Shown: in pieces, positions 1 through 2,094 of the stretch
How the letters are laid out: the number at the start of each line of letters is the position of its first letter
How positions within the stretch are numbered: position 1 is the first letter of the stretch
DNA from: Archangiaceae bacterium
GTDB lineage: Bacteria; Myxococcota; Myxococcia; Myxococcales; Myxococcaceae
Direction: 5' to 3'
NCBI GenBank assembly: GCA_043750125.1
Contig: JAYVCD010000363.1
Location: forward strand, 1 to 38,630
DNA: 38,630 bases
Program-made: the position numbers and the translations under genes
The notes under the pieces: generated by a model
The model's database searches: none
What the model was told of the DNA's origin: nothing
Seen by the model: the letters and a program-made list of their open reading frames with translations, nothing else

Positions 1-95
1 ACGAAAGCCGTGTGCGGGAAATCCGCACGCACGGTTTGAATGGAGGTGGGGGAAACCGGATCGCGTGAGCGAAACCGGCGCCCCCATCCACCTAT
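1..95 (+). mobile_element. 3' end of a group II intron (domain V, domain VI, 3' splice site); the rest lies upstream of the window
   Basis: Positions 5-37 (AAGCCGTGTGCGGGAAATCCGCACGCACGGTTT) fold as a canonical domain V: AGC catalytic triad at 6-8, AC bulge at 27-28, GAAA-type loop. A domain VI-like stem follows (GGTGGGGG 45-52 with CCCCCATC 81-88), with a candidate bulged branch A at 90 and a terminal AY (AT at 94-95). The exact 3' end is inferred. Confidence 0.9.
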
Positions 96-2094
96 GCGAA
101 AACCAACGGTCGTCGTCGCGCTCTTTGTCATCGGCTGCACTCAACCGACTGCCGTCGTCGAAAATCGCGCTCCCAAGGCGACCGTCGGAGCGGATCAAGC
201 GGTCTTCGGCGGCAACGCGGTGACCCTCAACGGCAGCCTCTCTTCAGACCCGGACGCAGACGCGCTCACCTTCGCCTGGAAGCAGACCGGTGGCGACGCG
301 GTATCGCTGTCGGATGCCGCCACCAACCAGGGGCACTTCACCGCTCCGGTCGTCACCGCTGCGACGACCCTCGTCTTCCAGCTCACCGTCTCGGACGGAA
401 AGCTCACCAACACCGTGTCCACCAGCGTCACCGTCAACGTGGTGGATCCGAACAACCACGCGCCGCTGGTGGTCATCACCGCGCCCACCACCGTCCAATC
501 GGGAGCGATGGTTCAGCTCGACGGCTCGGGCTCGACCGACCCCGACGGCGACTCGATGACCTACGTCTGGACCCAGAGCACAGGTCCTGCCGTCACCTTG
601 ACCAATGCGGATCAAGTCAAAGCGATCTTCGTCGCGCCCAACGTCACCGCCGACACGCTGTTCGCCTTCAAGCTGGTCGTCAGCGATGGGAAGGGCGGCC
701 AGGCCTTCGCCGAAACTTCGATCACCGTCCAGCCGATGACCGGCAACCGGCCTCCGGTCGCCAGCGCCGGCAGCAACCAGAACGTCTCGGGCTCGGCCCT
801 GGTCAAGCTGCTCGGCTCAGGCACCGACCCCGATGGAGACGCGATCGCCAGCTACAAGTGGACCCAGACCGCCGGAGCCGCCGTGGCCCTCTCGAGCAGC
901 ACCATCGCCGCCCCGACCTTCACCGCTTCGAACCCGGCTGCTCCCGTGACGCTCACCTTCTCGTTGATCGTCACCGACGCGAAGGGGCTGCCCTCGCTGC
1001 CTGCCGTCGTGAACGTGGTCGTCAGCAACGTCGCCGTTCCGACCGTCGTCATCACCAAGGTCGTCTCGCTGCACGCCGTCACCCGCACCAGCATCGTGGT
1101 GTTCTTTCTGACCGACGTAGCGGTGAAGGCCACGGTCGACTTCGGCAAGGCGTCCGCGAACGAGAGCAGCTTCACCGAGGCCACCGCGGCCACCCGTCAC
1201 GTCATCACCTTGCCCGCGCTGACCGCCGACACCAGGTACGTCTACTCGGTGCGCGCCGGCACCGCCTCGGCCAGCGGAAGCTTCACCACCGCGCTCGACT
1301 ATGCGGCGAGCCCCAAGCCGTTCACCTTTGCCGTCGTCGGCGACGCCCGCGCTCACACCATGTGGAAGACCGTCGCCACCGCAGTGCTGGCCAAGAATCC
1401 CCGGTTCATCGTTCAGACCGGCGACAACAATGACGCGGCGGGTTCGGCGGCCAACTGGGCCGAGTACTACTCCGTCGCCAAGGACATGTTCGCCAACATT
1501 CCGGTCTTCGCCGCGCAGGGGAACCACGACACCGGCAGCAACTACAGCGTCTACAACGTCGGCCCGCAGTCTTCGTCGAACTCCGATCTCTATTACGCGT
1601 TCGTTTACGGCAACGCGTCGTTCGTCGCGATCGACACCAACTCTTCGAGCGCCGCGATGACCGGGTGGATTTCCAATGCGCTGCCCAAGCTGACCGGCGG
1701 CCCGCTGTTCTCGTTTCATCATCACCCGCTCTACTCGTGCGGCAGCCACGGCAGCTCGACGACGCTCCAGGGCACCTACCAGGGAATGTTCGAGACCAAC
1801 CACGTGACGACCGACTTCACCGGCCATGACCATGACTTGATCGTGTGGAACGCAATCAACGGCGTTCGCTACGTCGTCTCGGGGGGCGGCGGCACCGGCC
1901 TGTATCCACTCAGCGGCTGCGTCGGCCCCTACGCGCAGTCGAAGTACGGGTTCATGATCGTCAACGTCGACGGGCAGAACATCACCCAGACGCTCTATGA
2001 CCAGAACGGCGTCCAGCTCTACTCCACCGGAGCCTTCCAGGCCTTCGGCGCCGCCCCCAACTTTGCCGGGCTGGGAAACCTCGTCACCTATTAG
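94..2094 (+). CDS. Lipoprotein with three PKD/REJ-like Ig domains, an FN3-like domain and a purple acid phosphatase-type metallophosphoesterase domain
   Basis: Lipoprotein signal MRKPTVVVALFVIG-C. Three N(R/H)(A/P)P...DPDxD...W.Q..G repeats. Metallophosphoesterase motifs GDAR, GDNND, GNHD, HHHP, GHDH. Start placed at ATG 94 because the ATG at 40 lies inside the intron. Confidence 0.85.
   Translation: MRKPTVVVALFVIGCTQPTAVVENRAPKATVGADQAVFGGNAVTLNGSLSSDPDADALTFAWKQTGGDAVSLSDAATNQGHFTAPVVTAATTLVFQLTVSDGKLTNTVSTSVTVNVVDPNNHAPLVVITAPTTVQSGAMVQLDGSGSTDPDGDSMTYVWTQSTGPAVTLTNADQVKAIFVAPNVTADTLFAFKLVVSDGKGGQAFAETSITVQPMTGNRPPVASAGSNQNVSGSALVKLLGSGTDPDGDAIASYKWTQTAGAAVALSSSTIAAPTFTASNPAAPVTLTFSLIVTDAKGLPSLPAVVNVVVSNVAVPTVVITKVVSLHAVTRTSIVVFFLTDVAVKATVDFGKASANESSFTEATAATRHVITLPALTADTRYVYSVRAGTASASGSFTTALDYAASPKPFTFAVVGDARAHTMWKTVATAVLAKNPRFIVQTGDNNDAAGSAANWAEYYSVAKDMFANIPVFAAQGNHDTGSNYSVYNVGPQSSSNSDLYYAFVYGNASFVAIDTNSSSAAMTGWISNALPKLTGGPLFSFHHHPLYSCGSHGSSTTLQGTYQGMFETNHVTTDFTGHDHDLIVWNAINGVRYVVSGGGGTGLYPLSGCVGPYAQSKYGFMIVNVDGQNITQTLYDQNGVQLYSTGAFQAFGAAPNFAGLGNLVTY

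Follow-up and report, generated by a model that had tools for sequence, protein, structure and literature searches.

A group II intron lineage that very probably inserts directly behind the start codons of leaderless genes, as seen from an intron tail in an Archangiaceae bacterium

The first 96 bases of a 38,630-nucleotide (nt) stretch of Archangiaceae bacterium DNA (assembly GCA_043750125.1, contig JAYVCD010000363.1; the whole stretch is called the window and is the start of contig C363 in an assembly of 460 contigs) very probably represent the 3' end of a group II intron from an endonuclease-less lineage that inserts directly behind the ATG or GTG of leaderless genes, as judged by the comparison of sequences. 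The last three bases of the intron are themselves ATG or GTG, so that the gene behind it still shows a start codon on the DNA. In the window, the ATG at 94-96 opens a 666-amino-acid (aa) open reading frame (ORF) beginning MRKPTVVVALFVIGC, with a lipoprotein-like N-terminus, PKD repeats and a calcineurin-like phosphoesterase (metallophosphatase) domain by Pfam, in agreement with the first-pass annotation of the stretch, in which this ATG had been taken to open a lipoprotein gene. The start-codon pattern was found to be common to about 100 relatives of the intron in Myxococcota, Actinomycetota and metagenomes.

The same annotation had placed a group II intron tail with domains V and VI at the window start, and this is borne out by both the family match and the fold. 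The Rfam family RF00029 (group II domains V-VI) matches positions 3-97 with 44.3 bits at a gathering score of 40 (E value 1.2e-5) and is the sole Rfam family above threshold in the 38.6 kb of the window, while the two domains fold with a z score of -4.06, none of 200 shuffled sequences being equally stable. The bulged branch adenosine of domain VI, read by inspection, is likely A90, since the Rfam consensus has six bases after the bulged A and A90 is the seventh base from the 3' end at G96. The motif GGAGG at 42-46 forms part of the domain VI stem, as had been noticed, and by the fold belongs to the 5' strand of this stem; it stands 47 nt ahead of the ATG and is too distant from it for a Shine-Dalgarno role. 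Both domains are overlapped by the end of the intron reverse transcriptase/maturase ORF, 404 aa of which are held, up to the same stop codon, by another copy in the genome (C167), with the Pfam families RVT_1 (E value 3.4e-36) and GIIM (7.5e-14); no endonuclease domain was found in the intron reverse transcriptase. In the relative L020, whose reverse transcriptase is 89% identical, the protein reaches 405 bits with TIGR04416 (cut-off 300), and domain I matches RF02003, the domain I to IV ribozyme core, with 91.4 bits (gathering score 49).

The contig C363 starts inside the intron repeat, and the remainder of the intron was not assembled beside the window gene. In the same genome, the first 98 window bases recur with 95-100% identity at seven other places, namely six contig ends and one internal site (C167), so that seven of the eight copies, that of the window included, are found at contig ends; RF00029 gives 11 matches above cut-off in the genome. 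All eight copies are identical through ...CCACCTATG and diverge from the next base onward, a pattern that greatly exceeds chance, the ATG opening an ORF of 81-812 aa in seven of them, six of these ORFs with Pfam families (Table 1). In the public sequencing runs X1 and X2, possibly from the source sample, the depth was about 103 for the intron piece 11-96 versus 9.5 for the gene, and the contigs of public runs fork behind position 96 or 98. The 5' end with its GUGYG motif, for which the first-pass annotation had proposed a search, came to light in the clustering of all contig ends: four of them (C317, C318, C319 and C79) share 96 bases starting GTGCG, each with an unrelated flank and an ATG before this start. 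The genome's own intron was thus assembled only as its first 99 and last 1245 bases. The same 5' junction (ATG, then the intron start) is seen in the diverged relics C90 and C3, and the same 3' junction in C90 and C46, but with C or A replacing T ahead of the ATG; C90 links both intron ends, matching the 5' piece at 89% identity and domain V at 91%. This relic (688-1533) keeps both junctions at a methyltransferase gene, but most of domain I is missing and the reverse transcriptase is incomplete. Other decayed or deleted relatives lie in C46 (about 1700-2078 and 593-668), which also holds a second, unrelated domain V-VI match, and in C3 (21738-end), while C19 (12354-12583) carries a 230-base reverse transcriptase fragment with 91% identity.

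With the partial reverse transcriptase as a query, 95 confirmed stretches were obtained from species-representative genomes and 80 of them were kept, at 62-89% identity in Myxococcota and 50-60% in a large group of Acidimicrobiia/Actinomycetota. The 3' end was matched in 72 loci, three of which were without a junction by the motif rule and seven had too little flank; under this rule each of the 62 assessed 3' junctions terminates in ATG or GTG. Of these junctions, 47 open ORFs of 100 aa or more, versus 33 of 124 in the two other frames, and ten more open ORFs of 48-97 aa, some of which look antitoxin-like by their first residues. In L046, L060 and L074 the target genes are ORFs of 64-75 aa whose first residues resemble those of antitoxins from toxin-antitoxin pairs. 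The host genes are varied (lipoproteins, a nuclease, a peptidase, antitoxin-like small genes) and not mainly housekeeping. Among 67 unique 5' flanks, including six from the genome of the window, G at -1 and T at -2 are invariable, position -3 is occupied by A (43 flanks) or G (24), and C stands at -4 in 52; the flanks of the other copies, whose tabulation had been proposed at the outset, thus have the same relation to start codons. The scan of metagenome contigs provided 599 confirmed stretches, of which 80 were kept and 39 had a resolved 5' boundary, with ATG, GTG or TTG at the boundary in 38, under a rule that allowed a shift of at most 2 nt and inflates chance matches, the locus L162 being doubtful. 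TTG may be the third start codon used as a target; the metagenome copy L171 stands behind TTG, six bases after a TACGAT box.

Because ATG or GTG stands at both junctions, the DNA alone cannot place the cut within the triplet. However, in the multi-copy families the triplet at the 3' junction is constant, whereas that at the 5' junction varies between ATG and GTG in several families (GTG in L045 versus ATG in L046, L074 and L095; also L033 versus L034 and L071 versus L070), which assigns at least the first base of the 5' triplet to the host and that of the 3' triplet to the intron. The first 620 nt of the 51 copies with both junctions were therefore aligned, and every column was tested against the flank positions. 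A single column, N in CGGGGUA-N-GGGGAGC, pairs with the base after the 3' triplet, by Watson-Crick pairs in 48 of the 51 copies and by G-U in three, with all four bases in use; the next best column reached 28, none of 1000 shuffles exceeded 31, and all 30 families (at 97% identity) fit this pairing. The column is read as exon-binding site 3 (EBS3). In the hairpin loop CUCAYNUCA, the base Y pairs with -3 in 51/51 copies and the next loop base with -4 in 47/51, all 15 CAC copies being behind GTG and the 36 CAU copies behind ATG (29) or, with a wobble pair, GTG (7), so that the loop (CAYN) is read as EBS1, a near-anticodon for the start codon together with the base before it. Taken together, the two putative pairings give the insertion point C-R-T-G|N, with the 5' triplet as the exon and the 3' triplet as the last three bases of the intron. 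By this covariation the 3' splice site lies after G96, and the whole ATG at 94-96 is assigned to the intron. The equivalent of position 97, the predicted intron-binding site 3 (IBS3), is C in 5/5 copies of the main subfamily in the window's own genome and A in two copies of a second subfamily. No convincing covariation that would point to EBS2 was found between the domain I columns and the positions -5 to -13 (the best was 36/51 in one isolated column), and base pairing would hence span only about five bases (four plus one).

Canonical group II introns start with GUGYG and end in AY. In the first-pass annotation the intron was accordingly ended at T95 and ascribed to a start-codon-specialised lineage that splits the codon as AT|G, with G as the first exon base and a 5' exon ending in a ribosome-binding site (RBS) and AT. 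The specialisation stands, other copies being likewise behind start codons, and so does the statement that the gene has an ATG in front of it whether or not the intron has been spliced out; the cut itself is moved to ATG|N. The AT|G model would have the merit of the canonical AY end and of an invariant G as the first intron base, and the ATG at both junctions does let the boundaries shift on DNA alone; however, it demands C throughout in the EBS3 column, which pairs instead with the base after the triplet in 51/51 copies with the use of all four bases, and the flank carries a -10 box 6-7 nt upstream and no RBS, so that this model is barely credible.

In 65 of the 67 flanks, including all four 5' junction contigs of the window's genome, a hexamer TANNNT precedes the start codon at a distance of 5-9 nt, which is 6 nt in 43 flanks and 7 nt in 19, whereas the remaining C[AG]TG sites of these upstream sequences have it in 21 of 3291 cases (0.6%); in the metagenome copies the box was present in 30/35 assessable flanks. 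TANNNT is the actinobacterial -10 consensus, and ATG or GTG at the transcription start marks leaderless genes. The hexamer is therefore read as the -10 box of promoters whose transcripts would start at the start codon, the targets being putative leaderless genes. The native RBS, which had been supposed to be separated from the gene by the intron, finds no place in this leaderless anatomy of the flanks. The comparison with intron-less alleles, also proposed in the first-pass annotation, showed the same arrangement: in an uninterrupted ortholog (63% identity, same genus) TACGGT is followed by 7 nt and ATG-CGA, and in an uninterrupted paralog of the same genome TACCTT is followed by 6 nt and ATG-CGA. 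As both begin with ATG-CGA, the N-terminus of the window gene is native and the expected empty site exists. The 5' flank of the window gene itself was not found: the tblastx comparison of the ortholog upstream region with the four 5' junction contigs gave no match, and short alignments singled out none of these contigs as the flank (score 9 for C317, 7 for C318). As to intron-less alleles or spliced RNA in public runs, no piece that joins another flank to position 97 was seen among the contigs of X1-X4, which cannot show absence, and the one RNA run contained 0.05 of the sequence words.

Alternatively, TANNNT could be not a promoter but a target element read by the intron RNA, in an EBS2-like manner, or by the intron protein, as its near-fixed distance from the insertion point in the 65/67 flanks would suggest. 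However, none of the domain I columns covaries convincingly with the positions concerned, any base may stand at the three middle positions and the distance to the start codon ranges over 6 to 9 nt, as is usual for -10 boxes, and the uninterrupted homologs have the same box before their start codons. Such an element is improbable, and the promoter reading is retained because of the lacking covariation, the free middle bases and the varying spacing.

The host start codon also opens a frame into the intron in a part of the lineage. In L020, the frame set by the host ATG contains no stop over 665 codons; it crosses the domains I-III, enters the reverse transcriptase and closes 28 nt short of the 3' end. 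In L020, L021, L024, L025 and L027 no stops occur in this frame over 600 nt versus 4-11 in the other frames, and the indels in the open-frame relatives are of -9, +3, +12 or -6 nt, or a compensated +2/+1 pair 20 nt apart. The same open frame was found in six further metagenome copies, and the first 99 nt of the genome's own intron are open in it by reading. In a quick tree, from which 11 loci are missing as no reverse transcriptase ORF was extracted from them, the open frame belongs to 10 of 13 members of one clade (Shimodaira-Hasegawa-like approximate likelihood ratio test, SH-aLRT, 96) and to the outlier L147. The locus L098 was not counted as a fused copy on account of its very long branch (2.87) and deviant composition.

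The following course of events may be proposed. Transcription from the host promoter would give pppRUG, then the intron, then the gene, and splicing, with the three-base 5' exon held by the CAY loop, would restore the original leaderless mRNA, in which the 666-aa gene would start with the native ATG supplied by the 5' exon. The splicing-dependent expression that had been suggested for this gene is plausible in a changed form, namely that splicing would restore a 5'-terminal AUG. In the clade of the window intron, ribosomes would start at the 5'-terminal AUG of the host and read through the ribozyme into the reverse transcriptase, the intron thus borrowing the host translation start for its own protein. 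A gap of 25 nt separates the stop codon of the reverse transcriptase from the spare ATG, and re-initiation on the unspliced RNA is conceivable. Since five paired bases cannot explain the site choice, the insertion probably depends on the promoter context, possibly on the single-stranded non-template strand of the transcription bubble. The complete scheme is put forward tentatively, as a possibility: the intron particle might find its site via the promoter (for example, by reverse-splicing into the non-template strand of the open or initially transcribing complex), check the start codon and one base, use the host promoter and AUG for its own reverse transcriptase, and leave the host a spare start codon.

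The site choice could also be explained by untargeted insertion at any C-R-T-G|N, after which only the copies at leaderless starts persist, being transcribed, spliceable and harmless. Such selection would agree with the pairing of about 5 nt, with the one ectopic-looking copy in the genome described below, and with the consideration that untranscribed copies cannot seed new ones; yet neutral intergenic or sense intragenic copies should then persist too, while the box stands in nearly all of the flanks and at 0.6% of the control sites, and it is kept even before very short ORFs (L021, L030 and L096). This explanation is considered unlikely, and the promoter context is preferred over a selection that removes all other copies.

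There are several observations that weigh against the proposed reading or its parts. The copy in C427, which occupies the first 100 bases of that contig, is not at a start codon and lies antisense to a P-type ATPase ORF running on the minus strand from base 93; it looks like an ectopic insertion, and its 5' flank contig was not found. At 5/62 of the 3' junctions the ORF is shorter than 31 aa. The intron ends in UG and not in the canonical AY, and its first base is U in 20/51 copies and G in 31/51, the UG end and the U at the start being unusual for a working ribozyme. The EBS1 and EBS3 of the genome's own intron are deduced from its relatives, the promoter identity of TANNNT is taken from its motif and spacing, and splicing, the transcription start and translation from the host AUG are predicted from aligned sequences. 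The domains I-III have no significant codon periodicity, with 75, 75 and 91 variable sites of 182 at each codon position, whereas the reverse transcriptase has 207, 159 and 315 of 442 and is significantly richer in them at the third position; a protein-level constraint on the frame of domains I-III was rejected on this ground, and what appears to be conserved there is the open frame, not the protein sequence. Finally, a large actinobacterial clade is without the open frame: there, the frame of the host start codon runs into a stop after 121-128 codons, and a different frame, with a GGAGG and an ATG of its own, encodes the reverse transcriptase. A programmed frameshift joining the upstream frame of about 127 codons to this reverse transcriptase was considered and rejected, the latter being mostly in frame 2 and in some copies in frame 1.

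The missing periodicity and the actinobacterial clade, which manages without fusion, would both suit an open frame that is merely incidental to a high G+C content and a shared ancestry, with synthesis of the protein only from the internal GGAGG and ATG, and an internal ATG behind a purine-rich stretch is indeed conserved in all clades. On the other side stand the complete lack of stops in five diverged copies, the frame-keeping indels with the +2/+1 pair among them, and the persistence of the frame in most members of its clade over end branches of 0.07-0.3 changes per site; the by-product account is held to be quite possible, with rather less than even expectation.

Among the known introns, the nearest kind by the protein and the recognition logic would be class C (IIC). 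The best solved relatives of the intron reverse transcriptase are IIC enzymes, 6ar1 (E value 1.1e-58) and 7uim (5.1e-57), and, as in GsI-IIC and the Eubacterium rectale introns, the protein is endonuclease-less, IBS1 is very short, IBS3 is of one base and EBS2 is not detectable. With so short a pairing, the site choice needs a further determinant that is not sequence-specific, as in class C. However, class C introns are found downstream of terminator hairpins or in attC sites, while here the start codons beside -10 boxes are used. A hairpin with a T-run was seen only at a more distant relative, the metagenome locus L162, which has 42-46% identity to the query and a very long branch (3.41) in the quick tree and is directly behind a G+C-rich hairpin and a T-run, which is the class C habit. 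The start-codon lineage may be an offshoot of class C or sister to it.

In the yeast mitochondrial cox1 introns aI1 and aI2 the protein is translated in frame with the upstream exon. Likewise, the intron protein frame is continuous here with the upstream coding sequence of the host, whose start would be used; unlike in aI1 and aI2, this coding sequence consists of the start codon alone, and the frame crosses the ribozyme domains I-III.

A specialised IIB1 lineage (Michel et al. 2007) has been described as tied to start or stop codons, with an insertion of 300-700 nt near the 5' end of domain I (PMC12584367). The present introns resemble it as a monophyletic lineage tied to translation start or stop codons that leaves a working codon (in the IIB1 case, groEL UAA becomes UAG), but in the 51 complete copies they are 1939-2035 nt long, with 488-573 nt before the ATG of the reverse transcriptase, and have no room for such an insertion. 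Moreover, the IIB1 lineage resides in housekeeping genes, the studied ones being cut within the codon (UA|A), whereas the cut is here behind the codon, in varied hosts with a leaderless promoter flank. An overlap with one of the lineages of Michel et al. 2007 is nonetheless conceivable, this IIB1 group, as summarised in PMC12584367, being the only printed start-codon lineage traced. In the review of 2015, as far as its text was available, three target specificities of bacterial group II introns are listed, namely homing sites, terminators and attC sites, and the words "start codon" are absent (PMC4424553); a start-codon habit is likewise unmentioned in the passages retrieved from PMC3552965 and PMC8919778. 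Full-text literature searches, with relevance judged in part by the title and the beginning of the abstract, turned up no publication that deals with group II introns in leaderless genes.

A lineage that reads only about five bases and is nevertheless found almost only behind leaderless start codons would represent a new way to a harmless and well-expressed site, the finding of which may involve the transcription machinery. A natural three-base 5' exon would test how little exon a group II ribozyme needs, and a retroelement that borrows the host start codon may have its protein made by way of leaderless translation. The CAY loop, which resembles an anticodon, and the single EBS3 base would be simple to reprogram. 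For genome annotation it follows that the start codons called at occupied genes would be intron sequence and that assemblies break there, as with seven of the eight copies in this genome.

Table 1. Features of the window and of the intron copies in the same genome
Feature	Positions	Strand	Basis or gene opened by the copy
3' end of group II intron	1..96	+	RF00029; genome copies 95-100% identical; depth contrast
Reverse transcriptase/maturase ORF, last 21 codons and TGA stop (66-68), overlapping domains V and VI	3..68	+	
Domain V hairpin	5..37	+	Rfam alignment; minimum-free-energy fold
Domain VI	40..95	+	Fold
Spare start codon, predicted last three intron bases	94..96	+	EBS3 covariation; constant 3' triplet within families
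Host gene as read on unspliced DNA, including stop	94..2094	+	ORF; Pfam
Predicted first 3' exon base, IBS3 = C	97..97	+	L020: EBS3 = G, C at +1
Copy C363 (window)			666-aa lipoprotein, PKD and metallophosphatase domains
Copy C134			2-hydroxyacid dehydrogenase, Pfam domain from residue 3
Copy C2			Cytochrome c
Copy C298			Disintegrin-repeat lipoprotein
Copy C439			SNase-like nuclease
Copy C362			M13 peptidase
Copy C167			81-aa ORF without Pfam family
Copy C427			No ORF opened; antisense in 3' end of P-type ATPase ORF

The triplet at the 3' junction is GTG in 9/15 CAC copies versus 0/36 CAU copies, which hints at a link of this triplet to EBS1 besides, or in place of, its role as a start codon; the relatives with such a GTG are L024, L030/L032/L041/L096, L061, L064/L065 and L068. 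The start UUGCG was found in 20/51 complete copies, including families with 4-5 copies per genome (L028, L035, L042-L043, L045-L050, L055-L056 and others), and U at the first intron position in apparently proliferating families is unusual. The covariation of this first base (G or U) with a domain IV column (22/15 versus 9/5), which lies beside the reverse transcriptase start, was put down to descent. In the metagenomes the starts UCGCG, GUACG, GCGCG and GCGUG are met (loci L120, L142, L148, L152, L156 and L164). At the C427 copy, the stop codon of the P-type ATPase ORF is formed across the intron junction, and the gene looks truncated. Other repeat families also break the assembly at contig ends, for example, those in C3, C119, C255, C424, C44 and C358-C360, and in C19, C311, C335, C345, C346 and C411; two repeat families, met at 12 and 6 contig ends, terminate in TGATCCACC-like motifs that occur repeatedly, in the manner of insertion sequences with multiple terminal repeats, and some other contig-end repeats start with CTAG.

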